Part shown: positions 5,230 through 63,917 of the stretch, in pieces
How the letters are laid out: every line of letters begins with the position of its first letter
Position numbering within the stretch: position 1 is the stretch's first letter
Position numbers and translations under genes: made by a program
The notes under the pieces: generated by a model
Database searches by the model: none
What the model saw: the letters and a program-made list of their open reading frames with translations, nothing else
What the model was told of the DNA's origin: nothing
Source: an uncultured Thermoplasmata archaeon
GTDB lineage: Archaea; Thermoplasmatota; Thermoplasmata; RBG-16-68-12
Direction of reading: 5' to 3'
DNA: 64,000 nt
NCBI GenBank assembly: GCA_963768855.1
Contig: CAVYJM010000012.1
Span: forward strand, 1 to 64,000

Positions 5230-6486
5230 ATGGCGCTCGGCCCAACCGCCATCTACGAGCAGCTGACCATTCTTCTCACTTTAGCAGTCGCGAGCCACCT
5301 TTTCAGCAAGCGGTTCCACCAGTCGACTCTGGTCGGGGAGATCCTTCTGGGGGTCATCCTTGGCCCGAGCCTCTTAGGCAATCTGGGCATCTTCCAGTTC
5401 GATCCCACGTTCATCGGCACCTTCGCGACCCTGGGTGCGATCTTCCTGCTGTTCCTCATCGGCCTGGAGGGCGACTTCCGGACCCTCTACACGCGGAAAA
5501 ATTTCCTTGTCGCGCTCGGTGGGGTCGTATTCCCGCTCGCCTTCGGCTTCCTGGTCGCATGGTACCTCGCGCCCGTCGGGCTGACCACGGTCGGCGCAAA
5601 CGGCAACAAGTTCCTGATGGCCCTCTTCATCGGCGCAACGCTCACCGCGACGAGCACGGCGATTGCTGCGTCCGTCCTCCTCGAGCTCAACTTGATGCGG
5701 GAGGAAATCGGGAAAACGATCATGGGGGCGGCTGTGGTCGACGACATCCTTGGCCTCCTCATCCTTTCCATCGTCGTGGGGGTGGCGCATGGCGGGATTG
5801 ACGCCGTTGGCTTGGCGGTCGTCATCGTCAAGGCCGTGGCCTTCATCGCTGTCGGGATTCTCGTCGGTGTCTACGGATTCAGCCCGATGGTCGTTCGGCT
5901 GCAGGTACTGGGGCTCCGTCTCGGAGTCAAACACGGCGGCTTCCTGATCGCCCTCGCCGTTGCGTTTCTCTATGCTCTGATCGCCGAGTCGATCGGCCTG
6001 TCTGCCATCATCGGCGCGTTCTTGGCGGGGACCATGTTCGCCCCCGCGCCCCTCAAGGAGGAGTTCGCGGAGGGCGGTCGCTACCTCGAAGCGATCTTCA
6101 CGCCCATTTTCTTCATCTCGTTGGGTATTGCGGTTGACATCTGGGCGGTGTGGAGGACGCCCGAGCTCTTCGTCTTCACGGTCGTCCTCCTCATCGTGGC
6201 CATGGTCACAAAGGTCGCCGGGTGCGCCTTGGCAGCCTGGCTTCAGCGGATGACCCCGATCGAGTCGATCGCGGTGGGATGGGGGATGACGCCCCGCGGG
6301 GAGGTGGGCCTCATCGTCGCCCTGACCGCCTTCACGGCCCTGATCATCCAGGATGCCATGTTCAGCGTCATCGTCCTCGTGATCATCCTCGTGAGTGTGG
6401 TGCCCGCCCCGCTGTTCAAACAGGCCCTGCGCGCGGTCGAGCAGGAACGCAAGACGAACGCCACGGCGGAGGCGAAGGCCGACTAG
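5230..6486 (+). CDS. cation:proton antiporter (CPA2, NapA/KefB-like)
   Basis: About 12 TM helices; VGEILLGVILGPS, LLFLIGLE, LTATSTAI, AAVVDD, GMTPRGEVGLI motifs. Confidence 0.9.
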   Translation: MALGPTAIYEQLTILLTLAVASHLFSKRFHQSTLVGEILLGVILGPSLLGNLGIFQFDPTFIGTFATLGAIFLLFLIGLEGDFRTLYTRKNFLVALGGVVFPLAFGFLVAWYLAPVGLTTVGANGNKFLMALFIGATLTATSTAIAASVLLELNLMREEIGKTIMGAAVVDDILGLLILSIVVGVAHGGIDAVGLAVVIVKAVAFIAVGILVGVYGFSPMVVRLQVLGLRLGVKHGGFLIALAVAFLYALIAESIGLSAIIGAFLAGTMFAPAPLKEEFAEGGRYLEAIFTPIFFISLGIAVDIWAVWRTPELFVFTVVLLIVAMVTKVAGCALAAWLQRMTPIESIAVGWGMTPRGEVGLIVALTAFTALIIQDAMFSVIVLVIILVSVVPAPLFKQALRAVEQERKTNATAEAKAD

Positions 6487-7046
6487 GTGCGCTCGACGAG
6501 CCTCTCCCCGACGACGTCGACGGCCATCAGCGTCTGGATCGGGAGGCCCAGATCCTTCTCCATCCGCGCCTTCTCGCGGGTCTTCTCAAACACGATCAGG
6601 ACGTCGGTGACCTCGGCCCCGATCTGGCGCAGGGCCTTGACGATCGCGGAGAGCGTCCCTCCCGTTGAGATCACATCGTCGACGAAGACGACCCGGTCGC
6701 CGCGGCGGATGTTGTTGATGAACATGTCCGTCTTCGAGTACCCGGTCAACTGCTTCAGCGAGACCTCGCCGGGGAGGCCGTACTGCCTCTTCCGGATGAA
6801 CACGTACGGTCGATGGACCCGCATGGAGAGGCCGGACGCGAGGGGGAATCCCATCGACTCGGCGGTCACGATCTTGTCGCACCGGGACCAGTCGCCTCGC
6901 TTCGCGAGCTCGCCGAGCACCTCGTCGAGGACCTCCGGCTTCCCGAGCGGAATGCCGTCCGTGATCGGGTGGACGAAGTAGTCGTAGTCGCCGAACCTGA
7001 CGACCGGGCACTCGGCCAGGCTTTCTCGAAGCCGTTCGAGGCTCAT
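6483..7046 (-). CDS. hpt: archaeal hypoxanthine/guanine phosphoribosyltransferase
   Basis: YDYFVHPITDGIP N-terminal signature, KIVTAESMG, PRPP-binding VVFVDDVISTGGT; last gene of an MTA-salvage operon. Confidence 0.8.
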   Translation of the reverse strand: MSLERLRESLAECPVVRFGDYDYFVHPITDGIPLGKPEVLDEVLGELAKRGDWSRCDKIVTAESMGFPLASGLSMRVHRPYVFIRKRQYGLPGEVSLKQLTGYSKTDMFINNIRRGDRVVFVDDVISTGGTLSAIVKALRQIGAEVTDVLIVFEKTREKARMEKDLGLPIQTLMAVDVVGERLVERT

Positions 7047-7050
7047 CCCC

Positions 7051-8307
7051 TCACTCCCGGGACAGGAGGTCGCGGGCCGCCTGGGAGGCCTTCTCGAGGA
7101 TCTCCGCCTCCCCTTTCACGCGCCGTCCCTTCATGATGACCTGCCCGTCGCAGATGACTGTGTCCACGCAGTTGCCGTGAGCCGAATAGACCCAGTTGCT
7201 GACGTCGTCGTGACGCGGCGTCAGCTCGGGGCGGCGCGGATCCAGGAGGACGAGGTCCGCGAGGCGCTCCGCCTGGACGAGCCCTGCGTCGATCCCGAGG
7301 GCGCGAGCGCCCCCGAGGGTGGCGAGCTGGAACGCTTCGTGGGCCGGGAGGACGGACGGGTCGCGATGGGCGAACTTCTGGAGCAGCGCGGCGAACTTCA
7401 TCGCCTCGAACATGTCCAGGTTGTTGTTGCTCGCGGCGCCGTCCGTGCCGAGGCCCATGACCACGCCCGCCTCCTTCATCGCGGCGTAGGGCATCGCCTG
7501 CCCTGCGGCAAGCTTCATGTTCGAGGTCGGGCAGTGCGCCACCTTGGCTCCCGTGCGAGCCAGGATCTCGATTTCCGCGGGGTCGAGCCAGCATCCGTGC
7601 GCGGCGACGACGTCCTTGGACAGGAACCCGATCTTGTCGAGATAGGCGGCAGGCCGGGCCCCGTGCTGGGACATGCAGTCGTCCACCTCCCGTTTCGTCT
7701 CGCTGAGATGGGTGTGGACGAGGTACCCCTTCTTGTCCGCGATCTCGCGGATCTTCAGAAGGGTGGGCTCGGAGACCGTGAAGATCGCGTGGGGTCCCAG
7801 GACCGGCGTGATCCGAGAGGAGCGGAGCGCCTCGATCTTCCGGTTCGCCTCGTCCGCGGCCTTCAGCTGCGCCTCCGCGCGGCTCGGGATGCCGAGGTCG
7901 ATGATGCCCTCCGCGAGGAAGGCCCGGAGGCCCATCTCCTTGACGGCCTTGCCGACCTGGTCCATGTGGAAGTACATGTCCAGGAAGGTCGTCGTCCCGC
8001 TCTTGATCATCTCGAGGCAGGCAAGCTTCGCCCCCCAGTAGATGTCCTCGGGCCGGAGCTTCGCTTCCTGGGGCCACACCCGCGTCTCGAGCCACTGCTG
8101 GAGGACCATGTCGTCCCCGAAGCCGCGGAGCAGGACCATCGGCGTGTGGGTGTGGAGGTTCACCAGGCCCGGGAGGGCGATCTTCCCCTTCCCCTCGACG
8201 ACGACGTCGGCCTCGCGCTTCTTCCCGATCTCGGCGATTCGGTTTTCCTCGATGTAGATCTGCGTGACCTGGCCGTCGAGCTCGACGTCGCGGATGAGGA
8301 CGCTCAT
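7051..8307 (-). CDS. mtaD: 5'-methylthioadenosine/S-adenosylhomocysteine deaminase (amidohydrolase)
   Basis: True start MSVLIRDVELDG at 8307 inside the 1383-aa track ORF; LPGLVNLHTHTPM, SGTTTFLDMY, GPHAIFT, HTHLSET, AHG, HCPTSNMKLA, LGTDGAASNN. Confidence 0.85.
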   Translation of the reverse strand: MSVLIRDVELDGQVTQIYIEENRIAEIGKKREADVVVEGKGKIALPGLVNLHTHTPMVLLRGFGDDMVLQQWLETRVWPQEAKLRPEDIYWGAKLACLEMIKSGTTTFLDMYFHMDQVGKAVKEMGLRAFLAEGIIDLGIPSRAEAQLKAADEANRKIEALRSSRITPVLGPHAIFTVSEPTLLKIREIADKKGYLVHTHLSETKREVDDCMSQHGARPAAYLDKIGFLSKDVVAAHGCWLDPAEIEILARTGAKVAHCPTSNMKLAAGQAMPYAAMKEAGVVMGLGTDGAASNNNLDMFEAMKFAALLQKFAHRDPSVLPAHEAFQLATLGGARALGIDAGLVQAERLADLVLLDPRRPELTPRHDDVSNWVYSAHGNCVDTVICDGQVIMKGRRVKGEAEILEKASQAARDLLSRE

Positions 8308-9029
8308 CGGATCCGCTCCACCGCGCCGGCGACGATGCGGGCCAGCGTACTCCGGTTCTTCTTCTGAGTGGCGTGGATCTGCTCGATCGTCAGCGCGCGC
8401 TCGACGATGCCGTTGCAGTAGTTGTCCACGGAGCACACGGCGGCGTACGGCACGCCCAGTTCGCTCGCGAGCGTGGCCTCCGACGCCATCGTCATGCCGA
8501 GGACGTCGCCGAGCGTGGCGAAGTGGGCGATCTCGGCCGGGGTCTCGAGACGCGGGCCGGTGGTCTGGACGTAGACGCCGCGGTTGCGGACCGACGCTCC
8601 CGCAGCCTTTCCGGACGAAACGAGGAGGTCCCGCAGGTCCGCGTCGAGTCCCGGGGTCGAATGGAGCACGTCCTCGTCGTGGAAGGTCGGGATGGACCAG
8701 AAGGAGACGAAGTCGTGCGGGATCACGAAACTGCCCGGGCGGATCGCCTTCTTCAGGGATCCGCTCGAGGCGGTGGCCAGAATCGCGGTGGCCCCGAGCT
8801 CTTGGAGGGCCCAGAGGTTCGCGCGGTGGTTCACCCGGTGAGGCGGGATTCGGTGCTGGGCGCCATGCCGGAGGAGGAAGACGACTCGGACGTCGCCGTG
8901 GTGCCCGCGGACGGGAGCGTTGCTCGGAGGGCCATAGGGGGTGTCCAGGGACTCCGGCTCCGGGTCCCGCAGGAACGTCGGATCCTGCAGGCCCGAGCCC
9001 CCGATGAGGCCCACGGTGGGGTGCGCCAT
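8304..9029 (-). CDS. mtnP: MTA/methylthioinosine phosphorylase (PNP/MTAP family)
   Basis: VGLIGGSG, DTPYGPPS, FLLRHG, VNHRANLWAL, GPRLETPAEI, DVLGMT, YAAVCSVDNY; overlaps mtaD start by 4 nt. Confidence 0.85.
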   Translation of the reverse strand: MAHPTVGLIGGSGLQDPTFLRDPEPESLDTPYGPPSNAPVRGHHGDVRVVFLLRHGAQHRIPPHRVNHRANLWALQELGATAILATASSGSLKKAIRPGSFVIPHDFVSFWSIPTFHDEDVLHSTPGLDADLRDLLVSSGKAAGASVRNRGVYVQTTGPRLETPAEIAHFATLGDVLGMTMASEATLASELGVPYAAVCSVDNYCNGIVERALTIEQIHATQKKNRSTLARIVAGAVERIR

Positions 9030-54246: not shown

Positions 54247-54638
54247 GGAGTCCAAGCCGCCGTAAACCCGGGCACTTTATAAGCGTTTGGTAGGTGTCCC
54301 GGAGTGCGTCGTCGCGGGCCCGTTGAGGCGGGCCGAACCGCCTCCCGCGAGCTATTTTTATCCAGCTTGGATTATGGAAATCCTGCCGCATCGATGCCTC
54401 GGTCGCAAGCCGCGCCGGACTCAACTCCGGGACGAATCCATGGCACGGAGAGGACGGCGGATGACGGCTCCATGAGCGCTCGCCGAATCGTGTTTGAGGA
54501 ACGCCGAAATCCGGAGACGCGGCGCGGTCGTAGCGCCGCGCCTTCGCGCTCGCCCAGCACAAGGTTTAAGTCTAATCCTTCTTTGTCGCAAACACCCGGA
54601 GACGCTCCATGGCGGCCCGGGCCCAAGAGGGTCGTGGG

Positions 54639-55262
54639 ATGAGGACCTTTGTACTGCTCGTAGCGGCAGTGATATTGAGCGTTTCCGCTCTTCCGATGAC
54701 TGCGACCCCGGCCACGGCAGCCTCAACGATCCCCGAACTCAAACTGACTATCCTCGGGGAGCAGAACGGGACCACGTACCAGTTCAGCCCGAGTCGGATC
54801 CTCCTGCCGCAGGTCCCGATCCTCATGAACATCACCTTCATCAACAACCAAACCGCCGGGAGCACGGTCCGGCACACCTTCTCGATCGACAGCTCGGGCG
54901 GGAAGACCATCCTCGACTACGACCTCGTCGCCCAGCAGAACGTGACGTTCGACATTCTGGTCAACTCGATGACGAACATCACGTGGAACGGGACTTCCTT
55001 CACGCCGGCCGTCGGGCCGACGGGCGGCATCAAGTTCTACTGCGTCTACCACCTCCCGGGCATGGTCGGTGAGCTGACCCTGGCGGGCGCCCCGTCCACG
55101 ACCGGCACGGAACAGAACGGCGTCTTCCTGCGGGCGTACTGGATCGGGATGATCGGGATCGCCGCGATGCTCGTGTGGATCGGCATCAGCTACTACATCA
55201 TCAAGGCCTCGACTCCCCGCTTCAAGGACAACCGCGAACACCTGAGGAAGGGTCTTCCGTGA
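54639..55262 (+). CDS. membrane-anchored type-1 blue copper (cupredoxin) protein
   Basis: Signal peptide, FSPSRI, RHTFSI (His), FYCVYHLPGMVGEL (C-x2-H-x3-M), C-terminal TM. Confidence 0.82.
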   Translation: MRTFVLLVAAVILSVSALPMTATPATAASTIPELKLTILGEQNGTTYQFSPSRILLPQVPILMNITFINNQTAGSTVRHTFSIDSSGGKTILDYDLVAQQNVTFDILVNSMTNITWNGTSFTPAVGPTGGIKFYCVYHLPGMVGELTLAGAPSTTGTEQNGVFLRAYWIGMIGIAAMLVWIGISYYIIKASTPRFKDNREHLRKGLP

Positions 55263-55552
55263 CCACGCTGATCCGGAGCGACGCGCCGCGACGGAGCGCC
55301 ATGGCGGCCGTCGCCATCGCGGGCCTCGTGATCGGCAGCCTCTGGTTCAGCGCCCTCAGCATCTTCCTCGCCCTCCAGGCCGCCAGCGGGGTCTACCCGA
55401 ACGACGTGAACGTCTACATGTCCCTCTTCCTCGGCATGGTCTTCGTCTGCGCGACGGTGGCCGTGGACATCTATCGCAGAGAGTTCATGCCCGACGAGCT
55501 CATCCATAAGATCCGGCGGCCCAAGCTGGTCCCGCCGAGGATGTTCCGCTGA
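55259..55552 (+). CDS. small 2-TM membrane protein in the Rieske/cytb operon
   Basis: GTG overlaps upstream TGA; two TM helices and a basic tail. Confidence 0.7.
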   Translation: MTTLIRSDAPRRSAMAAVAIAGLVIGSLWFSALSIFLALQAASGVYPNDVNVYMSLFLGMVFVCATVAVDIYRREFMPDELIHKIRRPKLVPPRMFR

Positions 55553-55560
55553 GGTGGTCC

Positions 55561-56343
55561 ATGAGCTGGGAGCAGGAGGAGAAGCAGAAGCGGTTCACCC
55601 GGCGCGAGTGGGTGAAGCTCAGCATGACCCTGGGCACGGTCGGTGCCCTGGGCGGCCTCGGCGGGCTCCTGAACGGGCAGCTCCTGCCGCCCCCGATCCA
55701 GCTCAGCGGCGAGGTCCGCGAGGGCCTGTACTACACGAAGTTCCCGACCCCGCAGTGGTGGAACGACAAGGACGGCACCCCGGTCAAGGCCGCGGACTTC
55801 AAGATCTGGGATGGGTCCACGGCGGTCTGGCGCGGGCTCTACCAGAACAACCAGCTCCTGCCGGGGACGGGCTTTCCATGCATCGTGATCCGGATTCCCA
55901 TCGACGCCCCGGAGTTCACCTTCCCGGATGCAGCGACCCTCACCGCCAACAGCATCGCGCCGCCGCCCGCGGGATTCGAGTACTATTACGAGGACAAGAC
56001 GACGGACACCCGCATCGTCGTGTGCTACGACCGTTGCGTCCACCTGTGCTGCTACCCGGGATGGCACGTCGTGACGAACCCGCCTCCTGGCCGGGACTAT
56101 GCGGTGCCCCCGCCGACCTACGATGTCTATCACGAGGACCCGATCTACTGCATCTGCCACGGATCGCAGTACGACCCGCTCCTCCTCACCGTGAACTTCA
56201 ATCCGCACAGCAACGTGAACTACATCGGGGCCGAGCGGGTCCACGGACCCGCCCCGCGGGCCCTCGTGGTGATCCCGGTGAAGAACGTGGGCGGCGCCCT
56301 GGTCGGGGGCATGCCGAACCCGAACTGGTACGTCTACTGTTGA
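55561..56343 (+). CDS. petC: Rieske [2Fe-2S] protein of a Rieske/cytochrome b complex
   Basis: Tat-like TRREWVK plus TM, box I CVHLCC, box II CICHGSQYD, GPAPRAL. Confidence 0.92.
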   Translation: MSWEQEEKQKRFTRREWVKLSMTLGTVGALGGLGGLLNGQLLPPPIQLSGEVREGLYYTKFPTPQWWNDKDGTPVKAADFKIWDGSTAVWRGLYQNNQLLPGTGFPCIVIRIPIDAPEFTFPDAATLTANSIAPPPAGFEYYYEDKTTDTRIVVCYDRCVHLCCYPGWHVVTNPPPGRDYAVPPPTYDVYHEDPIYCICHGSQYDPLLLTVNFNPHSNVNYIGAERVHGPAPRALVVIPVKNVGGALVGGMPNPNWYVYC

Positions 56344-56352
56344 GGTGGTGCG

Positions 56353-57129
56353 ATGGCGTCAGGAGCGTCCGGATCGTTGCGGGAGGACGGCCAGCGCACG
56401 GTCTTCGGCTGGTTCAAGACCCGCTTCCCGACCGTGCCGTGGGCCGACCTGACCCGGAAGGCGCTCGAGACGGACCAGCGGCAGATGCCGCGCAGCCACG
56501 CGGAGAAGTACGAGCTCAAGACGATCTGGTACTGGTACCCCCTCTACTGCCTCGGGGGCATCTCGTTCGTCGCGTTCATCATCCTCACCCTGACGGGGAT
56601 TATCCTGGGCTTCTTCTACGTCCCGAACGGCGCTTACGTGTACTCGGCGACGGGCGGGCTCACGAACGCCGCCTACGACTCGATGACGCGGATCATGACC
56701 CAGGTGCCCTTCGGCTACATCGTCCGGGGAATGCACCACTGGGCCGCGCACGTGATGATCGCGGCCGTCTTCCTGCACATGTGCCGCGTCTACTTCACGG
56801 GCGCGTACAAGAAGCCGAGGGAGCTGAACTGGCTCATCGGCGTCGTCCTTCTCCTGCTCACAATCCTGTTCGGGTACTCCGGCTACCTGCTCCCGGCCAA
56901 TGACCTGAGCGAGGGCGCCGCGAACATCGGGATCGAGATGACGCGGGCCTCCCCGCTCATCGGGGACCAGCTCGCGACGCTCCTCTGGGGCAGCACGAGC
57001 ACGCTCTCCGGCTACTACATCCTGCGGTGGTACTGGATCCACGTGTTCATCTTGCCGTTCGTCGGCGTGGGCCTGATGGTCGTCCACATGGCCCTCGTCT
57101 GGATCCAGGGCGTCGCGGAGCCGCACTGA
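56353..57129 (+). CDS. petB: cytochrome b6-like N-terminal subunit (split cytochrome b)
   Basis: YCLGGI, LTGIILGFFYVP, GYIVRGMHHWAAH...FLHMCRVYFTGAYKKPRELNW, FGYSGYLLP, WIH...VH: four heme His ligands. Confidence 0.93.
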   Translation: MASGASGSLREDGQRTVFGWFKTRFPTVPWADLTRKALETDQRQMPRSHAEKYELKTIWYWYPLYCLGGISFVAFIILTLTGIILGFFYVPNGAYVYSATGGLTNAAYDSMTRIMTQVPFGYIVRGMHHWAAHVMIAAVFLHMCRVYFTGAYKKPRELNWLIGVVLLLLTILFGYSGYLLPANDLSEGAANIGIEMTRASPLIGDQLATLLWGSTSTLSGYYILRWYWIHVFILPFVGVGLMVVHMALVWIQGVAEPH

Positions 57130-57137
57130 GGTGGGTC

Positions 57138-58448
57138 ATGGAAATCGAGAAGGTCAAGGAGAAGGTGATGGAGGGCCGGCCGGGCTTCACCCGGCAGTAC
57201 GGGCCGTCCCGCTCGGACCACCAGCCGGGAATCCCCTTCTTCCCCCAGGAGATCACCCGCGACGTGGTCGTCTCCTTCCTGCTCATCGCGATCCTCTTCT
57301 TCCTGACGGCCGCCGTCGTGCCCGCCCTGGGGCCGCCGCGGGCGGAGAACCTCTCCGAGCTCATCGTGCCGGACTGGTACCTCCTGTTCTCCTGGGGCCT
57401 CCTGAAGATCGGCGACATCTTCCCGAGCTTCATCCTCGGAGCGGGGACGCCCCTCGAGACCCAGTTCAACGCGGCGTTCTGGGGGGACATCCTCAGCGGC
57501 ATCCCGGTCATCTTCCTCCTGGTCCTGCCGTTCCTGGATCGCGGCCGCGAGGCGCGTCCCGCGAAGGCACCGTTCCGGTCCGCCCTCGGGATCTCCTTCC
57601 TGCTCGTCTGGACGTTCTCCGCCTCCCTGTACGCAATCCGCGAGGTCATCGAGCAGCGGTGGCAGAGCCCGAACGGGGCGACCCTGTTCCCGGACGACGC
57701 CCTGAAATGGCTCTTCGTCCTGCCCGCCGTCCTGGCCTTCTTCGCGACCTACATCGCGCTGCGGCGCCTCGGGTTCCAGCCGATGCGCAAGTGGCTTGTG
57801 CCTGCGACGGTCCTGCCTTTCCTGGTCGTGGCGGCGCAGTCCCTCCTCATCCTGTTCGTGCCCGGCTGGCTCGGCCCGGAGGTCATGCCGTACTGGCTTC
57901 AGCTCGCGATCGGCCTGCTCATCCTGTGCGCCGCGACCGGGGCGACCGCCCTTGCGGTCCTCGTCCTCCCCGAATCGACCGCGCGGCGCGTCGTGCATTG
58001 GGTCGGCGGGCTGACCCTGCTGGCCTTCGTCGGCTATCTGGTCGGCCTCTACTACACGAGCTACCTCGGATACATGTGGGTCGCCACGGTCCTCGACCCG
58101 AACTTCAACACGCTCATCCTGCTCCCCGGGTTCGCGGTCGTCACGGCGTGGTTCGGCCTGCGGCGGCCGTACAGCTCCTACGAGTACCTGCTCAATGAGT
58201 GCTACCAGTGCGGCAAGTGCCACACGGTCTGCCCCGTCACGAAGGTGGAGGACGACGCACTCGGCGGCCTGAACCTCGTCTACAACAGCTTCAAGAAGCA
58301 GCACGACGGCGTCCCACTCTGGACGTGCCTCGCGTGCGACGCGTGTAGCGCGGTGTGCCCGCTCGACATCAAGTACAGCGACTACATCCTCGAGGAACGT
58401 TCGAAGGTCCACGCCCGGGCGGCGGCGGACGGAGGTGAACCGAAATGA
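57138..58448 (+). CDS. petD: cytochrome b subunit IV (PetD-like) fused to about 5 extra TM helices and an HdrC-like 2x[4Fe-4S] domain
   Basis: PFFP, PDWYLL (PEWY variant), LVLPFLDR; about 8 TM in total; C-terminal CYQCGKCHTVCP and CLACDACSAVCP. Confidence 0.85.
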   Translation: MEIEKVKEKVMEGRPGFTRQYGPSRSDHQPGIPFFPQEITRDVVVSFLLIAILFFLTAAVVPALGPPRAENLSELIVPDWYLLFSWGLLKIGDIFPSFILGAGTPLETQFNAAFWGDILSGIPVIFLLVLPFLDRGREARPAKAPFRSALGISFLLVWTFSASLYAIREVIEQRWQSPNGATLFPDDALKWLFVLPAVLAFFATYIALRRLGFQPMRKWLVPATVLPFLVVAAQSLLILFVPGWLGPEVMPYWLQLAIGLLILCAATGATALAVLVLPESTARRVVHWVGGLTLLAFVGYLVGLYYTSYLGYMWVATVLDPNFNTLILLPGFAVVTAWFGLRRPYSSYEYLLNECYQCGKCHTVCPVTKVEDDALGGLNLVYNSFKKQHDGVPLWTCLACDACSAVCPLDIKYSDYILEERSKVHARAAADGGEPK

Positions 58449-59419
58449 TGACCACCGACGAGACGGAGTACGGGCCGGGGCGGACGATCCCCCACCCGAT
58501 GCTCTTCCGCGTGCTGGACAGCGAGGCGGAGGACACGACGGTCCCGGAGATCAAGGTCGAGCACAAGTCCGAGTTCGCGTACTACCCGGGCTGCGTCGAC
58601 TACTACGACATGGAGATGCAGTTCTCCCACGCAAACTACGGGGACACGAACCACGGGATCATCTTCGACTCCTCGATCAAGCTCCTGCGCGCGGTCGGGA
58701 TCGAGCCGATGATCCTGGACCGGTCCTTCATGAAGTGCTGCGGCCACGACCAGCTGTGGCAGGGCAAGGTCGACGTCTTCGAGCGGATGCGGGACTACAA
58801 CACGAAGATCATCCAGATGCTCGGCGTGAAGACCTTCATCACCTCCTGCGCGGAGGGCTACCGGACGTTCAAGCTCGACTACAAGCTGCCCGGCGTCCGG
58901 GTGGTGCACATCACCCAGATCCTCTACGAGCGCGGCCTGCGCGTGCCGCCCCAGGGGGACAACGCCAAGAAGATCCGTGTGGCCTACCAGGACCCGTGCC
59001 GATCCTGCCGCCAGATGCCCGTGGACCCCGTCTACGAGGAGCCGCGGGAACTCATCAAACGCGTCGACAACGCGGAGCTCGTCGAGCTCAAGACGTTCCG
59101 CGCGGACGCCCAGTGCTGCGGCGTCGCGCAGATGATGTACTGCAACGACAAGACGAAGGGCCTGACCCGCAAGCGGATGGACGAGGCCGACGAGGTCGGG
59201 GCGGACTACCTGCTGACGGCCTGTCCGAAATGCCTCACGCACTTCGGCTGCCTCCACCACGAGAACAAGTGGAAGCCCGGCGAGGAGCGCCAGAACTACC
59301 GGGTGATGGACATCACCCAGTTCCTCGCGGAGCGCCTCCCCGGCGACTACCCGTCCGGCAGCAACGTCGACGCGAAGCGCAAGGAGCCGCCGCTTCCGGG
59401 CCGGAAGGGAGGCTGGTGA
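58445..59419 (+). CDS. CCG-domain iron-sulfur protein (HdrB/HdrD/GlcF-like)
   Basis: YYPGC...KCCG...TSCAEG and YQDPC...QCCG...TACPKC: two CCG domains; overlaps upstream gene by 4 nt. Confidence 0.88.
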   Translation: MMTTDETEYGPGRTIPHPMLFRVLDSEAEDTTVPEIKVEHKSEFAYYPGCVDYYDMEMQFSHANYGDTNHGIIFDSSIKLLRAVGIEPMILDRSFMKCCGHDQLWQGKVDVFERMRDYNTKIIQMLGVKTFITSCAEGYRTFKLDYKLPGVRVVHITQILYERGLRVPPQGDNAKKIRVAYQDPCRSCRQMPVDPVYEEPRELIKRVDNAELVELKTFRADAQCCGVAQMMYCNDKTKGLTRKRMDEADEVGADYLLTACPKCLTHFGCLHHENKWKPGEERQNYRVMDITQFLAERLPGDYPSGSNVDAKRKEPPLPGRKGGW

Positions 59420-60030
59420 TGGCCGCTCCGGCCGCAACCGCCAACCCACCCCCCGCGACGCCTCCGCAGCCGGCGCCTCCGTCCAAGCCGGCGACACCCG
59501 CCCCCGCGGCGCCCCCGGCTCCTTCCGATCCGCTCGTGGCCTACTACCGTTCCGTGCGGCAGATGAACTGGGATCTCGCCAAGCAGCGTTTCAAGGACCT
59601 CGGCGTCAAGGCGCGGACCCAGGAGTACATCCGCGGCCGCGGCACGACCGCGATCGTGGACGACGAGGTCTGCATGGGCTGCATGCACTGCTTCGACAAC
59701 TGCGCCTTCGAGGCGATCAGCGCGCTCGACCGGAAGTTCTCCCTGCCCGACTACACGTACACGTCGCGCAAGGCGACGATCATCGTGGAGAACTGCGTCG
59801 GGTGCGAGAAATGCGCGATCGTCTGCCCCGTCGACGCGATCAACATGATCACGAAGTTCGGCTTCGAGAGCCGCGAGGGCAAGGTCGTCGAGATCGAGAA
59901 GCCCGCTCCGCCGAAGCCCCTCGCGCCCCCCGCGCCGCCCGCCGCGCCCCCGGCGAAGCCCGCGGGCCCCCCGCAGGCCCCGCCCAAGCCCGCCCCGCCG
60001 CCGACCCCCGCCCCGAAGGGAGGCGCCTAG
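59419..60030 (+). CDS. 2x[4Fe-4S] ferredoxin with Pro/Ala-rich termini
   Basis: CMGCMHCFDNC and CVGCEKCAIVCP; PAPP-rich N- and C-tails; TGATG coupling. Confidence 0.88.
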   Translation: MAAPAATANPPPATPPQPAPPSKPATPAPAAPPAPSDPLVAYYRSVRQMNWDLAKQRFKDLGVKARTQEYIRGRGTTAIVDDEVCMGCMHCFDNCAFEAISALDRKFSLPDYTYTSRKATIIVENCVGCEKCAIVCPVDAINMITKFGFESREGKVVEIEKPAPPKPLAPPAPPAAPPAKPAGPPQAPPKPAPPPTPAPKGGA

Positions 60031-60366
60031 GTGGCCTCCGCGGCCGAGGGATCCGGGACGAGCCCGGTCGTCAAGGCCCGGAAGGCGCCCCGCCTCACGT
60101 ACAAGCAGGAGATCCAGACGATCCAGAACATGCCGCGGGTCCAGCGCTTCATCGTCGTCATGAAGATCGCGGGCGTCTTCCTCGTCGCGATCGGCATTGA
60201 GGGGATCGTGACGGCCACGTGGTGGATGGCGGTCCTCTTCATCCCGCTCGGGGTGGTCGTGTCCATGATGCCCATCAAGATCCGCACGGACCGCTGCATC
60301 GCCTGCCGGACGCCTCTGGCGCCGGGGGCGTCGATTTGTCCCGCTTGCGGAGCTCCTCAGATGTAG
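60031..60366 (+). CDS. small 2-TM protein with C-terminal zinc ribbon
   Basis: Two TM helices, then RCIACRTPLAPGASICPACG. Confidence 0.7.
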   Translation: MASAAEGSGTSPVVKARKAPRLTYKQEIQTIQNMPRVQRFIVVMKIAGVFLVAIGIEGIVTATWWMAVLFIPLGVVVSMMPIKIRTDRCIACRTPLAPGASICPACGAPQM

Positions 60367-60478: not shown

Positions 60479-60991
60479 TTGACCACTGATACGTCGGACG
60501 CCATTCATCTCGCCGAACGGTGGAAGGGACTCGACCTCCGGTTGCTGCCGATCGACGAGGTGGACGTCCGGATCCTCAGCCGCCTCCGCGAGAACGCACG
60601 CCTCTCGAATGTGGAAATCGCCCGCGAGCTGGCGATTTCCGAAGCCACGATTCGCCGGCGGATCAAGGCCCTCGAGGAGAAGGGGATCATCCAGGGCTAC
60701 TCCTGCTACCTGAACTACCAGCTCATCGAGAATCCGGTCAAGGCGTACGTGAACCTGGCCCTGGAGCCTGGGCAGCGCGAGAGCGTCGTCGCGAAGGTGA
60801 CCGCCCACCCGCGTGCGGTCGCGGTCTACCGCGTCACGGGGGAGCACGACGTGCTGTGCGTCATGTTCTTCATCGACATGTCCGAGCTCCACGAGTTCCT
60901 GGACCGGTACCTGCAGATGCCGGGCATCCGCCACGTGGAGACCCAGATCGTCCTGAGCCCGTACAAGGGCGTCCCCTGGACCGGCGTTTGA
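60479..60991 (+). CDS. Lrp/AsnC family transcription regulator
   Basis: IDEVDVRILSRLRENARLSNVEIARELAISEATIRRRIKALEEKGII HTH; VTGEHDVL RAM domain. Confidence 0.92.
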   Translation: MTTDTSDAIHLAERWKGLDLRLLPIDEVDVRILSRLRENARLSNVEIARELAISEATIRRRIKALEEKGIIQGYSCYLNYQLIENPVKAYVNLALEPGQRESVVAKVTAHPRAVAVYRVTGEHDVLCVMFFIDMSELHEFLDRYLQMPGIRHVETQIVLSPYKGVPWTGV

Positions 60992-60994
60992 ACC

Positions 60995-62425
60995 TCACGG
61001 CCGGACGAGCGGTTCGAGGACGTGCGCGGAGTCGAACCGCAGCTTGATCTCCCGCAGGAACCGCATCCGTTCGAGGTAGGCGGGATCCTCATTCCAGAGG
61101 TGCGCCAGGCGAGAGACGAGGACCGCTCCGGGGATCTTCTCGACGACCCGCACCACGCCCTTCGAGAGGTCGTACATGTGCGACCGGTCCTTGGGATGGT
61201 CGAAGAAGGGGAACGCGGAGAAGGTGCCGGACGCACGGAGGGTGCCGTAGAATCCGACCTTCGAGGCGACCTGCTGGCCGAGCGCCTTCAGGCGCGTCGC
61301 GAGGTCTCCCGCCGAGGCGGTCGGGAGTCGGACCTCCCCGACGAACAGGCTCCGCTCCGCGCGCTTCGCTGCCTTGTCGTACTCCGTCGCGGGGACGTCG
61401 AACGGGTTCGGGACCTCCGCGGACTTGACCTTGAAGCCGGCCAGCGCCGCGTCGAGCGCCTTCTCCCGGCCGGGGAGGCCCGAGGCGGTGCCCGCCAGGG
61501 CCACTTGGACCGTGAACGGGTCCGGGACGATTCCGGGCCGCAGAACGCCCGCCGCCACGGCGTCCGTGACGTGGACCCACGGGACGCGCTGTCCCGTCCG
61601 GGAGAGCTTGTCGAGTGCCGCGGAGAGCTTCGCCGGGTCATCGAAGGTGTAGGTGAGCGTCTTGCGGGCGGGAGGCTTCGGCGCCAGCCGCAGGGCCACC
61701 TCCACGGGCACGTAGAACTCCGCGGCGAGCGGGAGGGTCGCGTGGAGGACGTCGTATCCGGTCCCGTTGTTCGAGGCTGCCTCGAACCCGACCCGCGTCC
61801 GGTGGCCGTAGGCGGAGATCGTCCGCAGGGCGTTCACGTAGGCGCCGAACTCCCCGTCGAAGGCGGCGAGGGGCGCGTCCCCCCAGACCGCGTCGCCGAT
61901 TGCGAAGCCGAGCGGGACGGTCGGCACCACCGGAAGGAGGTGCCCCTTCGCGAGGGCTTCGTCGTACAGGCGCTTCCAAGGGAGGCCGACCTGCGCGATC
62001 GCCGCGTGTCCCTTCTCGGTGAGCTCGAGCCCGGTGTACGCAGAGAAGTCGACCTGCACGCCGCGTTGCTCGGGGACGAGCCAGTCGAACGTCAGGAGGG
62101 TGTGCGGCTTCACCGTGAGTCCGATCTCGCGGTCCTTCCCGACGCCGAGCTGCGTGCGGAAGTAGTTGTAGTCCGCGGCGTCGAGCCCGAGGTTCAGCGT
62201 GCTCTCGGAGCCGTTCAGGACCTGGATCAGCTTCCGCAGGTCCGCGTCGTCCTTGACCTTGACCGTAACCGCGGGCGTGCGCGTCAGGTCGGCGATGATC
62301 TCCCGCGGCAGGACCCGGTCGTTCCGAACGAACAGGGCGTGGATGAGCGCCTCGCGGATCATCTCCGAAAGGGCGGGGATCTCCGTGGCGGCCTCGATGT
62401 AGTTCCAGTCGCGCAGGAGTCCCAT
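60995..62425 (-). CDS. divergent FAD-binding PCMH-type (GlcD/GlcE-like) oxidoreductase subunit
   Basis: AQVGLPWKRL, GYDV, C-terminal IKLRFDSAHVLEP; the glycine-rich FAD loop is not recognisable. Confidence 0.6.
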   Translation of the reverse strand: MGLLRDWNYIEAATEIPALSEMIREALIHALFVRNDRVLPREIIADLTRTPAVTVKVKDDADLRKLIQVLNGSESTLNLGLDAADYNYFRTQLGVGKDREIGLTVKPHTLLTFDWLVPEQRGVQVDFSAYTGLELTEKGHAAIAQVGLPWKRLYDEALAKGHLLPVVPTVPLGFAIGDAVWGDAPLAAFDGEFGAYVNALRTISAYGHRTRVGFEAASNNGTGYDVLHATLPLAAEFYVPVEVALRLAPKPPARKTLTYTFDDPAKLSAALDKLSRTGQRVPWVHVTDAVAAGVLRPGIVPDPFTVQVALAGTASGLPGREKALDAALAGFKVKSAEVPNPFDVPATEYDKAAKRAERSLFVGEVRLPTASAGDLATRLKALGQQVASKVGFYGTLRASGTFSAFPFFDHPKDRSHMYDLSKGVVRVVEKIPGAVLVSRLAHLWNEDPAYLERMRFLREIKLRFDSAHVLEPLVRP

Positions 62426-62426
62426 C

Positions 62427-63917
62427 CTAATCCGCCTCCTTGCCCCGCTCGTACGATCGCACGAACTTGTCCTGGGTCGGCTTGATCCTCCGCAAGAACG
62501 CGGCGAGGTCGAGACCGATTCGCATCGCCGGCGGCGGGATGGCCCGGATCCCCGGGAACTGGTACTTCGTCCACACCTCGATCGTCTTCCCCGGGTTCAC
62601 CTTCCGCTTCGGGTCGAAGACATCCTTGACGTACGCGGTGTAAAGGGCCGCGCGGCCGTGCATCGTCCGGAGGTTGAAGACCATGAAGAGGCCGAGCCCC
62701 ATCGGGTGGCCGCCGAGCTCGAAGGCGGCGTCCCCCATCTTCTTCACGTATCCGAGGGCCGTGCCGCCGCTGGGCACCGTGTCGTCCATCAGGACGTAGG
62801 GCGCGAGGATCACGGAGGTCGCGTCGATGGGGTGCGCCTGGACCGCGCCGTTGAGCTTCATCTTGCGGATCAGCTCCCGCGCTGTGTCGCAGGCCTCCGG
62901 GAGCTTCGCGAGCGGGACCACGTTGTTCGCGACGATCAGGCCGCGGCTCATCCGCCGCGCGCTGTACATCCGGAACCGGTGCTCCCAGAGCGCGTCGGGC
63001 TCCGCCTGGGGGCGCTTCGTCCCCTGGTTCTTCGGCGCGAGAGCGTCGAGGGTCTTCTCCTGGTCCGCGACGTCGTCCTTCGGCCCGGCGAGGCACACGA
63101 GGACCAGGTCGGCCGGCTCGGGCGTGTCCGTGCGCAGCGCCCTCTCGAACACGAAGTGATCCTTGTCGAGCAGGGAGATGTGGTACGCCTGGATCCCTGA
63201 GTCGACGACCGCCTGGAGGAAGGTCGCGGCCGCCTTCAGGGTCGGGAAGGCGTACGCGACGGGTTTCATCAGATCGGGTTTCGGGTCCAGCCGGAGGGTC
63301 GCGGCGGTCAGGACGCCGAGCGTCCCCTCCGCCCCGAAGAAGAGCGGCGTCAGGTCCGCGAACTGGCCCCCCGCGTCGCGCGCGAGCGCGGTGCGGAGGA
63401 CCCGGTTGTCCGGCAGGACGACCTCGAGGTCGCGGACGACCTGGCGGAGCGCTCCGTTGCGGAAGGCGCCGAAGCCGACCACGTCGCTGTTGATCGCGCC
63501 TCCCACCGTGCTCGCCATCGCGTTCGTCGGCATGGAGGGGAGGGTGAGTCCGCGCGCCTCGACGTACTCGGCGACGTCCTGCCAGGTCGCACCCGCCTCG
63601 ACGGTCACCGTGCGCGCCTGCGGGTCGAAGGCGCGGATCTTGTTCATCTTGCGGAGGTCGATCAGGACGCCGCCCCGGTTCGGGACCGATCCGCCGTACC
63701 AGCCCGTCCCGCCGCCCCGCGGGACGATCGGGAGGCCCGACTCGTCGCTGAGCTTCACGATCGCCGCGACCTCTTCCGTGGTCTGCGGCAGGACGACGAA
63801 GTCCGGGTAGAGGCGCCACTGCAGGAGCGCAATCTTGGGGAGGGAGGCGAAGTCGTGGCTGTAGACCATCCGGTCAAACTCGGTCCGGGAGACGCGCTCG
63901 GGACCGAGGGTGTTCAC
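62427..63917 (-). CDS. FAD-linked oxidoreductase (GlcD / D-lactate dehydrogenase family)
   Basis: PDFVVLPQTTEEV, VPRGGGTGWYGG, VTVEAG, TVGGAIN, FFGAEGTLGV, VFDPKRKVNPGK; frame stays open upstream (LANTDYAYRRL), so the true start may be near 63950-63958. Confidence 0.88.
   Translation of the reverse strand: MNTLGPERVSRTEFDRMVYSHDFASLPKIALLQWRLYPDFVVLPQTTEEVAAIVKLSDESGLPIVPRGGGTGWYGGSVPNRGGVLIDLRKMNKIRAFDPQARTVTVEAGATWQDVAEYVEARGLTLPSMPTNAMASTVGGAINSDVVGFGAFRNGALRQVVRDLEVVLPDNRVLRTALARDAGGQFADLTPLFFGAEGTLGVLTAATLRLDPKPDLMKPVAYAFPTLKAAATFLQAVVDSGIQAYHISLLDKDHFVFERALRTDTPEPADLVLVCLAGPKDDVADQEKTLDALAPKNQGTKRPQAEPDALWEHRFRMYSARRMSRGLIVANNVVPLAKLPEACDTARELIRKMKLNGAVQAHPIDATSVILAPYVLMDDTVPSGGTALGYVKKMGDAAFELGGHPMGLGLFMVFNLRTMHGRAALYTAYVKDVFDPKRKVNPGKTIEVWTKYQFPGIRAIPPPAMRIGLDLAAFLRRIKPTQDKFVRSYERGKEAD

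Follow-up and report, generated by a model that had tools for sequence, protein, structure and literature searches.

A subunit IV protein ending in a two-cluster iron-sulfur domain, and its probable, separately encoded CCG partner, in the Rieske/cytochrome b locus of a Thermoplasmata archaeon

A stretch of 64,000 nucleotides from an uncultured Thermoplasmata archaeon of the lineage RBG-16-68-12 (GenBank assembly GCA_963768855.1, contig CAVYJM010000012.1, positions 1 to 64,000 of the forward strand; hereafter the window) contains an open reading frame at 57138-58448 on the plus strand, encoding a protein of 436 amino acids, P0001. This protein appears to be subunit IV of a b6f-type Rieske/cytochrome b complex that ends cytoplasmically as a two-cluster [4Fe-4S] domain. 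The domain and the protein encoded directly downstream, which carries two CCG domains, are by their sequences the two parts of a split HdrD-type protein. With somewhat better than even confidence, we read the pair as an EtfD-like electron wire grafted onto complex III, fed by an RnfB-like ferredoxin and/or a GlcD/GlcE-like flavoprotein and leading to haem bH/ci and the quinone-reducing (Qi) site.

The membrane part of P0001 shares with subunit IV (PetD) a match to Cytochrom_B_C (PF00032; residues 74-154, 22.7 bits, just over the Pfam cut-off of 20.7), a PDWY motif of the quinol-oxidizing (Qo) site in the ef loop (residues 78-81, invariant in 52 aligned sequences) and a position directly after a four-helix cytochrome b6. 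A subunit IV is otherwise defined by three transmembrane (TM) helices and the lack of a cofactor domain, whereas P0001 has eight helices and a 2x[4Fe-4S] domain. Hydropathy indicated eight TM segments and an amphipathic ef helix, and AlphaFold2 placed the helices at residues 37-60, 112-133, 141-166, 186-209, 214-240, 250-276, 279-307 and 309-340, with a predicted local distance difference test score (pLDDT) above 90 across residues 180-340. Three canonical subunit IV helices are followed by five further ones, the first of which corresponds to helix H of long cytochromes b, according to an NCBIfam QcrB alignment (residues 21-205) and Foldseek matches to actinobacterial QcrB. The membrane part consists of helices E-F-G-H plus four lineage-specific helices, TM5-8. 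Foldseek with the P0001 model matched the subunit IV part alone (QcrB) and gave no fold match for TM5-8, and the Protein Data Bank (PDB) matches of the family profile include QcrB and C-terminal halves of cytochrome b.

The C-terminal part matched the Fer4_8 dicluster domain in Pfam at residues 352-411, its top PDB match was HdrC2 (9sfi_E), and its two CxxCxxCxxxCP motifs of the HdrC/HdrD type (residues 355-366 and 397-408) were invariant in the same 52 sequences. Mean column identity within the family was 0.97 in this Fer4 part, 0.77 in the subunit IV core and 0.54 in TM5-8. The linker after TM8 and the N-terminus of the subunit IV part were almost invariant, and the MEIExVK start was kept in all homologs.

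Subunit IV is established to have its N-terminus inside in both b6f and bc1 complexes. The charge bias of the P0001 loops agrees with this orientation, lysine plus arginine amounting to 14.1 on the proposed inside versus 5.2 outside. From hydropathy, the AlphaFold2 model and the charge bias, both termini are cytoplasmic and the iron-sulfur domain with them, since the helix count is even and a 2x[4Fe-4S] domain without an export signal must be cytoplasmic. The preliminary description, made from the sequence alone, had proposed three subunit IV helices with PDWY, about five extra TM helices and a 2x[4Fe-4S] end, and had expected an even count of about eight to put the domain on the cytoplasmic side. 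Pfam, hydropathy and AlphaFold2 confirmed the architecture, and the topology was upheld by hydropathy, the model and the charge bias alike.

The whole architecture was found in more than 200 database proteins of 427-458 amino acids, down to 53% identity, and the fusion was full-length in 47 species genomes, down to 43% identity. All of these are Thermoplasmata metagenome-assembled genomes (MAGs) that were recovered from soil, aquifer and sediment. They include members of the Rifle RBG and Angelo 'EA' sets, which belong to the GTDB order RBG-16-68-12, which is Ca. Angelarchaeales (PMC9038741), and the 47 MAGs are probably all members of it. The family is narrow: clustered at 50% identity, the full-length matches of an exhaustive profile search fell into just four groups. 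Among 301 sampled genomes of the class, the full-length fusion was present in four families of the order (15/16, 7/7, 3/3 and 1/1 genomes) and was not found in its three other families (0/7, 0/5 and 0/2) or outside the order. Down to 43% identity the gene order was also kept: copper protein, Rieske protein, cytochrome b, P0001, CCG protein, ferredoxin, zinc-ribbon protein and a convergent GlcE-like/GlcD-like pair.

Public entries of the P0001 family are partly faulty, P0102 and P0038 being chimeric or frame-shifted and P0107 internally duplicated, and could skew architecture counts. P0102 (595 amino acids with PF00032, Fer4 and CCG), considered as a fused form of the P0001 clade, was discarded as a chimeric out-of-frame entry, and P0038 with it. 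Such entries might suggest that the fusion itself is an assembly or frameshift artefact joining a subunit IV gene and a ferredoxin gene, but independent studies have yielded the same uninterrupted frame in more than 200 proteins and in 47 species genomes, which makes this chance negligible and excludes the indel at the domain junction that the preliminary description had named as fatal to the fusion.

In a profile search the same domains were also recovered in single chains. Relatives of 539-798 amino acids combine a four-helix subunit IV, which does not contain TM5-8, with Fer4 and two CCG domains, and versions of 917-942 amino acids, named as Poseidoniaceae (marine group II), have hundreds of members. 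Residues 325-433 of P0001 aligned with residues 172-277 of the single-chain relative P0155 (41% identity), the subunit IV part of which also aligned with P0001, and residues 34-298 of the CCG protein aligned with residues 292-536 (47% identity, E 4e-73). Since P0001 and the CCG protein thus align end to end with one polypeptide, there is gene-fusion evidence that both act as one unit. As in HdrD, two CxxCxxCxxxCP motifs (in P0001) and two PF02754 domains (in the CCG protein) are present, but the domains, which in HdrD lie in one polypeptide, are here divided between 57138-58448 and 58445-59419. With the AlphaFold2 model of P0155, Foldseek returned EtfD first (1e-11), followed by LutA and HdrB, the match to HdrB lying in the CCG region.

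The number of helices before the iron-sulfur domain was even in every variant with resolvable helices, namely 4, about 6 or 8. In a tree of the shared regions with midpoint rooting, the split eight-helix proteins formed one clade (SH-like approximate likelihood ratio test, SH-aLRT, 99) nested among the fused forms, which suggests, the root not being established, that a later gene fission with four inserted helices is likelier than transfer of the iron-sulfur half alone. The preliminary description had seen an HdrD/GlcF protein whose iron-sulfur half was moved onto the cytochrome b complex, with the downstream CCG-only gene as the remainder. The iron-sulfur part does sit on subunit IV and the split HdrD type is supported by the P0155 alignments; the transfer of one half is disfavoured by the whole HdrD being fused in relatives and by the nested position of the split clade. 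A GlcF identity was rejected as well, as the Fer4 domain scored 19.1 bits in NCBIfam GlcF versus a cut-off of 333, the CCG protein had no GlcF match, and the module was only 25% identical to the GlcF-like paralog of the same genome. By sequence, the module belongs to the cytochrome b-associated HdrD family and not to GlcF.

The marine group II chain was inspected on two marine metagenome contigs (L068 and L069). On L068 the gene (6001-8805) encodes a subunit IV-like part, extra helices, an insert of about 260 amino acids, Fer4 and two CCG domains; it follows directly after a PLYCLGGIS-bearing cytochrome b and a Rieske-like protein, with an RnfB-like ferredoxin nearby. A different setting was observed for a fused relative at L048:4729-14876, where genes for a multihaem cytochrome c, Rieske protein, cytochrome b, the subunit IV-HdrD fusion, HdrC, HdrB, a 1010-amino-acid HdrA, FlpD and a multihaem cytochrome succeed each other, apparently a Rieske/cytochrome b complex coupled to a bifurcating Hdr module. 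In another fused relative the genes after the fusion encode an FAD oxidoreductase, a polyferredoxin and FlpD. Methanoperedens has the nearest unfused relative, which is HdrD-like and opens an Hdr cluster, and the literature on Methanoperedens Rieske/cytochrome b complexes describes no HdrD fusion. The extra N-terminal helices of P0140 and P0332 were considered as a cytochrome b6; they have no histidine pairs and are not cytochrome b.

The CCG protein is among the most conserved of the locus, with 60-96% identity overall and 84-96% in most of the clade. Its second CCG domain has a complete motif (C185, C224, C225, C260 and C263). In the first, C50, C98, C99 and C135 are followed by Gly138 (C135-A-E-G138) at the position of HdrB Cys81, so that the complete CXnCCGXmCXXC motif which HdrD has in both domains is here without its bridging cysteine. 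This CAEG was fixed in 21/21 sequences of the clade, and the fused relatives have CAEC. HdrB catalysis depends on the bridging cysteines Cys81 and Cys234 (PMC13083937). The replacement of the Cys81 equivalent by Gly138 disfavours Hdr-type cleavage, and the sequence therefore suggests a wire in preference to a disulfide-cleaving enzyme, the activity itself being predicted.

The top solved match of the CCG protein was Mycobacterium smegmatis EtfD (9ojn_A, 2.7e-13), followed by HdrB. In the EtfD chain a five-helix membrane part binding a single haem b comes first, two cubane clusters follow, and two CCG domains complete the protein (Courbon et al. 2026, PMC13083937). It works as a wire from electron transfer flavoprotein (ETF) through four clusters and haem b to menaquinone, the proximal cubane cluster being 7 Å from the haem (PMC13083937). 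Its clusters are fully ligated, shielded and non-catalytic, which its authors read as an adaptation to aerobic life (PMC13083937). An EtfD in the strict sense has a NarI-like haem b domain fused to Fer4 and CCG domains with CTG and CPHC motifs, a combination that the present module does not have.

The genome also encodes a true EtfD homolog of 698 amino acids (C10:52947-55043; L065:5947-8043, minus strand) with the CTG and CPHC motifs and a match of 4e-101 to 9ojn_A, about 3 kb from EtfAB (C10:48720-49971), one of the two EtfAB-type pairs of the genome. By sequence it is an archaeal EtfD-type wire from ETF to menaquinone. Elsewhere in the genome, the gene of a GlcF-like protein lies close to another GlcD-like gene, and there is also an HdrABC-like cluster. 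With an EtfD homolog and a separate GlcF-like protein of its own, the organism would hold the subunit IV module as an additional, paralogous coupling device.

The partner cytochrome b6-like protein (258 amino acids) carries a CxGG motif in helix A (PLYCLGGIS, with Cys66). In b6f-type complexes this cysteine is the one that binds haem ci/cn (Dibrova et al. 2017, PMC5600118). Every hybrid locus examined had it, including those with fused and marine group II chains. The partner accordingly has the signature of haem ci/cn-bearing Rieske/cytochrome b complexes, with the third haem predicted. A second, unsplit cytochrome b of the genome (430 amino acids, C21:77377-78669, L062:7378-8670, minus strand) is without the CxGG cysteine; it adjoins an ethylbenzene-dehydrogenase-like (EB_dh) haem protein and is probably part of a Nar-associated NarC-type complex.

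The proposed mechanism may be depicted as follows: The iron-sulfur domain and the translationally coupled CCG protein would form an HdrD/EtfD-like module held permanently on the cytoplasmic (n) face, acting as an electron wire and not as a disulfide reductase. Electrons would enter from the RnfB-like ferredoxin, ultimately from reduced ferredoxin, and/or from a GlcD/GlcE-like flavoprotein dehydrogenase, and would pass first over the clusters of the CCG protein and then over the two cubanes of P0001 to haem bH/ci, where menaquinone would be reduced at Qi. Quinol would then be oxidised at Qo of the same complex, with electrons moving over the Rieske centre and a blue copper protein to an oxidase. 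What the analysis establishes directly is the architecture, the topology, the conservation, the relation of split to fused forms, the CxGG cysteine and the altered first CCG motif. We infer that the proteins bind each other, that cluster and haem are close, which way the electrons flow and which donor supplies them; the closeness of the iron-sulfur domain to the Qi site is suggested by the topology and the analogy with EtfD. The wire reading draws on the architecture and topology, the conservation in 47 species with a fixed gene order, the single-chain relatives, the CxGG partner, the EtfD match, Gly138, the linkage with GlcD/GlcE and the suggestion of Diamond et al. 2022.

Features of the locus, with positions in the window
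Feature	Position	Strand	Basis
Cupredoxin-like blue copper protein with C-terminal anchor	54609..55262	+	H...C-x2-H-x3-M (YCVYHLPGM), C-terminal hydrophobic helix
Small membrane protein of two helices, starting at either GTG 55259 or ATG 55301	55259..55552	+	Open reading frame; tblastn in several related loci
Rieske iron-sulfur protein with twin-arginine leader	55561..56343	+	FTRREWVK; CVHLCC / CICHGS boxes; synteny
Cytochrome b6-like subunit of four helices, with the CxGG cysteine (haem ci/cn)	56353..57129	+	PF00033 1e-34; His pairs 128/142 and 230/245
P0001, subunit IV-like protein with 8 TM helices and C-terminal 2x[4Fe-4S] domain	57138..58448	+	Open reading frame, Pfam, alignment, hydropathy, AlphaFold2
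Subunit IV core of P0001 (residues 37-209), with helices E-F-G, an H-like helix in fourth place and PDWY at 78-81	57246..57764	+	PF00032, NCBIfam QcrB, Foldseek to QcrB C-terminal halves
Lineage-specific helices TM5-8 of P0001 (residues 214-340), weakly conserved	57777..58157	+	AlphaFold2 pLDDT >90; column identity
Linker and HdrC/HdrD-type dicluster ferredoxin domain of P0001 (residues 341-421)	58158..58400	+	Fer4_8 8e-9; near-invariance
CCG protein, 324 amino acids, two PF02754 domains	58445..59419	+	Pfam (80 bits), EtfD/HdrB matches
RnfB-like 2x[4Fe-4S] ferredoxin with proline-rich N- and C-terminal tails	59419..60030	+	Fer4_21 3e-11
Two-helix membrane protein with C-terminal zinc ribbon	60031..60366	+	Zinc-ribbon matches, all under Pfam cut-offs
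Lrp/AsnC-type regulator	60479..60991	+	Open reading frame, assigned by eye
GlcE-like degenerate FAD-oxidase paralog	60995..62425	-	FAD_binding_4 22 bits, weak, under cut-off
GlcD-like FAD-dependent 2-hydroxyacid dehydrogenase-like protein	62427..63917	-	PF01565 1e-39, PF02913 5e-16

The genes from the copper protein to the zinc-ribbon protein are tightly packed on the plus strand, with an A-type ATPase subunit I gene upstream, a mark of archaeal origin. From P0001 through the zinc-ribbon gene, stop and start codons overlap or abut: the CCG start overlaps the P0001 stop (ATGA), the ferredoxin ATG overlaps the CCG stop, and the zinc-ribbon start abuts the ferredoxin stop. The blue copper-like protein had no Pfam match and is the probable acceptor of the Rieske centre. 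Its gene lies upstream of the Rieske gene in most related loci, and a plastocyanin-like protein was reported at this place in 23/30 such loci (Diamond et al. 2022, PMC9038741). The NCBIfam match of the Rieske protein was weak, its place in the synteny being conserved. The RnfB-like ferredoxin scored 34.6 bits in NCBIfam rnfB, under the cut-off of 68.7, and the gene matching it was termed rnfB-like in PMC9038741. Both the ferredoxin and the zinc-ribbon gene were kept in all related loci with sufficient flank, and the Lrp/AsnC-type gene was present only in L001, L002, L003, L020, L024, L041 and L042 of the related loci. The proline-rich tails of the ferredoxin are of low complexity and about 35 and 45 residues long, with no obvious function, perhaps serving as flexible tethers. 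Just past the end of the window, the genes immediately upstream of the GlcD-like/GlcE-like pair, and in its orientation, are those of TatA and TatC (L070:1042-2544, C12:64041-65543, minus strand). Complex I (nuo) genes follow on the opposite strand, and with the ATPase and Tat genes they make up a compact respiratory island.

The top solved relatives of the GlcD-like protein were mouse D-lactate dehydrogenase (8jdb, 1e-70) and LctD (7qh2). Both Pfam domains are present, and the score for TIGR00387 was 176.8 bits versus 567.9. GlcE-like orthologs were found only in the four fusion-bearing families, about 3 kb off on the same contig, and not in the three families without the fusion. This co-occurrence suggests a donor role. 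A narrower form of the wire reading, possible but in our judgement not probable, is that ferredoxin acting through the RnfB-like protein is the sole donor and that the GlcD/GlcE-like genes are unrelated neighbours in the respiratory island. The RnfB-like gene belongs to the same coupled operon and is found near the marine group II version with no GlcDE nearby, orphan RnfB genes were noted by Diamond et al. 2022 (PMC9038741) and Tully 2019, and the GlcDE pair is on the opposite strand with TatA and TatC upstream. Yet the GlcE-like orthologs track the presence and absence of the fusion over seven families and remain adjacent even where the ATPase neighbour has been lost, and the genes examined on the strand of the GlcD/GlcE pair include no other iron-sulfur or CCG partner for it. 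A predicted complex of the GlcD-like protein, the CCG protein and the Fer4 domain with two 4Fe-4S clusters scored 0.00, which is no answer and is evidence in neither direction on binding. An entry of ferredoxin at complex III was independently suggested by Diamond et al. 2022 (PMC9038741), who had remarked on the 'hdrD-like' and 'rnfB-like' genes.

Several points weigh against an inward wire with these donors. HdrDE and DsrMK pass electrons from the membrane to the CCG site, in the opposite direction. The closeness of the iron-sulfur domain to haem bH/ci is presumed, the Fer4 part having a pLDDT below 50 in both AlphaFold2 models (P0001 and the fused relative P0155, predicted template modelling score 0.53-0.64). 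The second CCG domain keeps the full Hdr motif with its bridging cysteine, and the extreme conservation of the CCG protein is as expected for a catalytic site. The GlcD-like protein has GGHP where its family has GEHG, an atypical active-site motif. The GlcD/GlcE genes stand in a respiratory island with ATPase, Tat and complex I genes, so their linkage may be partly inherited synteny, and the genomes are related and not independent samples. Finally, HdrABC-FlpD or different flavoproteins take the place of GlcDE beside the module in other lineages, so that the donor is lineage-specific at best.

In a rival reading, electrons leave through the module. In that case Qo would split the electrons of quinol, one going to the Rieske centre and the copper protein, the other over bL and bH/ci to the iron-sulfur/CCG module and on to a cytoplasmic acceptor. 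This acceptor could be ferredoxin, reached over the RnfB-like protein, or a disulfide reduced by the second CCG site, which is intact; the complex would be a quinol-driven reductase of the bifurcation type. The direction from a membrane cytochrome b to a CCG site in the canonical HdrDE and DsrMK, the complete second motif in a protein 84-96% identical across most of the clade, and the HdrC-HdrB-HdrA-FlpD genes after one fused relative are in line with this. We nevertheless regard it as unlikely: a bridging cysteine is needed on both clusters for Hdr-type cleavage and is missing from the first CCG domain, and transfer toward the negative side and to low potential costs energy. EtfD, the closest solved analogue, runs inward, and a substrate of the coenzyme M/coenzyme B type is not expected in these aerobic heterotrophs (PMC9038741).

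Alternatively, subunit IV might only tether an independent quinone reductase of the GlcF/SdhE kind, the CCG module reducing quinone at the membrane surface without the b/ci haems and the fusion giving just proximity (substrate channelling) to the Qo site. SdhE, GlpC and GlcF are thought to act at the membrane without a cytochrome (in part PMC2754724), and the four extra helices are poorly conserved, as a spacer would be. In EtfD, however, the same module passes electrons to a haem b 7 Å from the proximal cluster. The near-invariant linker after TM8 and the subunit IV N-terminus suggest a specific interface, and the association with CxGG-type cytochromes b was strict in all loci examined. A role as anchor alone is therefore rather improbable.

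The subunit IV-iron-sulfur design proposed here as a wire is also present in marine group II archaea and is barely described so far. In the literature library searched for a fusion of subunit IV with iron-sulfur domains, only one sentence on the neighbouring hdrD-like and rnfB-like genes was found (Diamond et al. 2022, PMC9038741). An 'MGII specific (complex III)' appears in Tully 2019 along with an orphan RnfB, the fusion going unremarked there, and Dibrova et al. 2017 (PMC5600118) did not mention iron-sulfur fusions. The single chain of 917-942 amino acids is the 'MGII-specific complex III', and current schemes of the respiratory chain of marine group II, among the most abundant planktonic archaea, leave its complex III unexplained and its RnfB an orphan. 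More tentatively, there may be a widespread class of archaeal Rieske/cytochrome b6 complexes, in Angelarchaeales, marine group II and others, in which the low-potential chain of bL, bH and ci is hard-wired on the cytoplasmic side to an HdrD-like module and runs a new chemistry. This could be either the injection of electrons from ferredoxin or flavoprotein at haem ci, a permanent form of the debated ferredoxin-to-ci cyclic route, or a quinol-driven reduction of a cytoplasmic low-potential acceptor by bifurcation at Qo. The role of haem ci and the entry of electrons into b6f-type complexes from the n side (cytoplasmic or stromal) are long-standing open questions, and a natural complex with a fixed iron-sulfur arm at the n face would make the haem ci question testable by structure and kinetics. 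The principle of EtfD and HdrDE, an iron-sulfur/CCG wire with a membrane haem, would be extended to the Rieske/cytochrome b family, which suggests that dehydrogenases are pluggable into the Q cycle.

Among the known systems, QmoC of sulfate reducers likewise has an HdrC-like dicluster domain fused to a membrane cytochrome b subunit, connecting HdrA-like flavoproteins with the quinone pool. Its domain order is reversed and its anchor is of the HdrE type, and the NCBIfam qmoC score here was 25.7 bits versus a cut-off of 300. In GlcDEF, GlpABC and LutABC, FAD dehydrogenase subunits deliver electrons to a subunit with Fer4 and CCG domains at the membrane, and a GlcD/GlcE-like pair stands beside the present locus; the iron-sulfur and CCG genes, however, are here outside the dehydrogenase operon and far under the GlcF and GlpC cut-offs.

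The b6f complex and the b6c-type complexes of Firmicutes and heliobacteria share with the present one a split cytochrome b6 and subunit IV, the PDWY/PEWY motif of Qo, the CxGG for haem ci at Qi and a long-discussed n-side input of electrons from ferredoxin. Their subunit IV has three helices and no iron-sulfur domain, ferredoxin and ferredoxin-NADP reductase bind only transiently, and the acceptor, here probably a blue copper protein, is neither cytochrome f nor cytochrome c in the present locus. In HdrDE and DsrMK, too, a Fer4 dicluster and two CCG domains sit on the cytoplasmic side of a membrane cytochrome b, which binds two haems and serves a quinone or phenazine pool. That cytochrome is of the NarI type, whereas the one here is of the Rieske-associated type, and a disulfide or trisulfide is reduced there with both (Hdr) or one (DsrK) of the CCG sites catalytic, whereas the first site here has no bridging cysteine. 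To our knowledge, no disulfide or trisulfide substrate of the HdrDE/DsrMK type is known for this organism.

The closest resemblance in the order of its parts is to mycobacterial EtfD (Rv0338c family; PDB 9ojn), in which a membrane domain, a short linker, two cubane [4Fe-4S] clusters and two CCG domains follow each other as they do in the module. The first CCG site of EtfD is likewise non-catalytic, with four cysteine ligands, its bearer is an aerobe, and a cytoplasmic flavoprotein is connected through it with haem b and menaquinone. The two differ in the motifs, CTG and CPHC in EtfD versus CCG and CAEG here, and in the anchor: in EtfD a five-helix, one-haem domain similar to NarI/HdrE is part of the same chain, whereas here subunit IV provides the anchor, the haems belong to a different subunit and the CCG half is encoded by a gene of its own.

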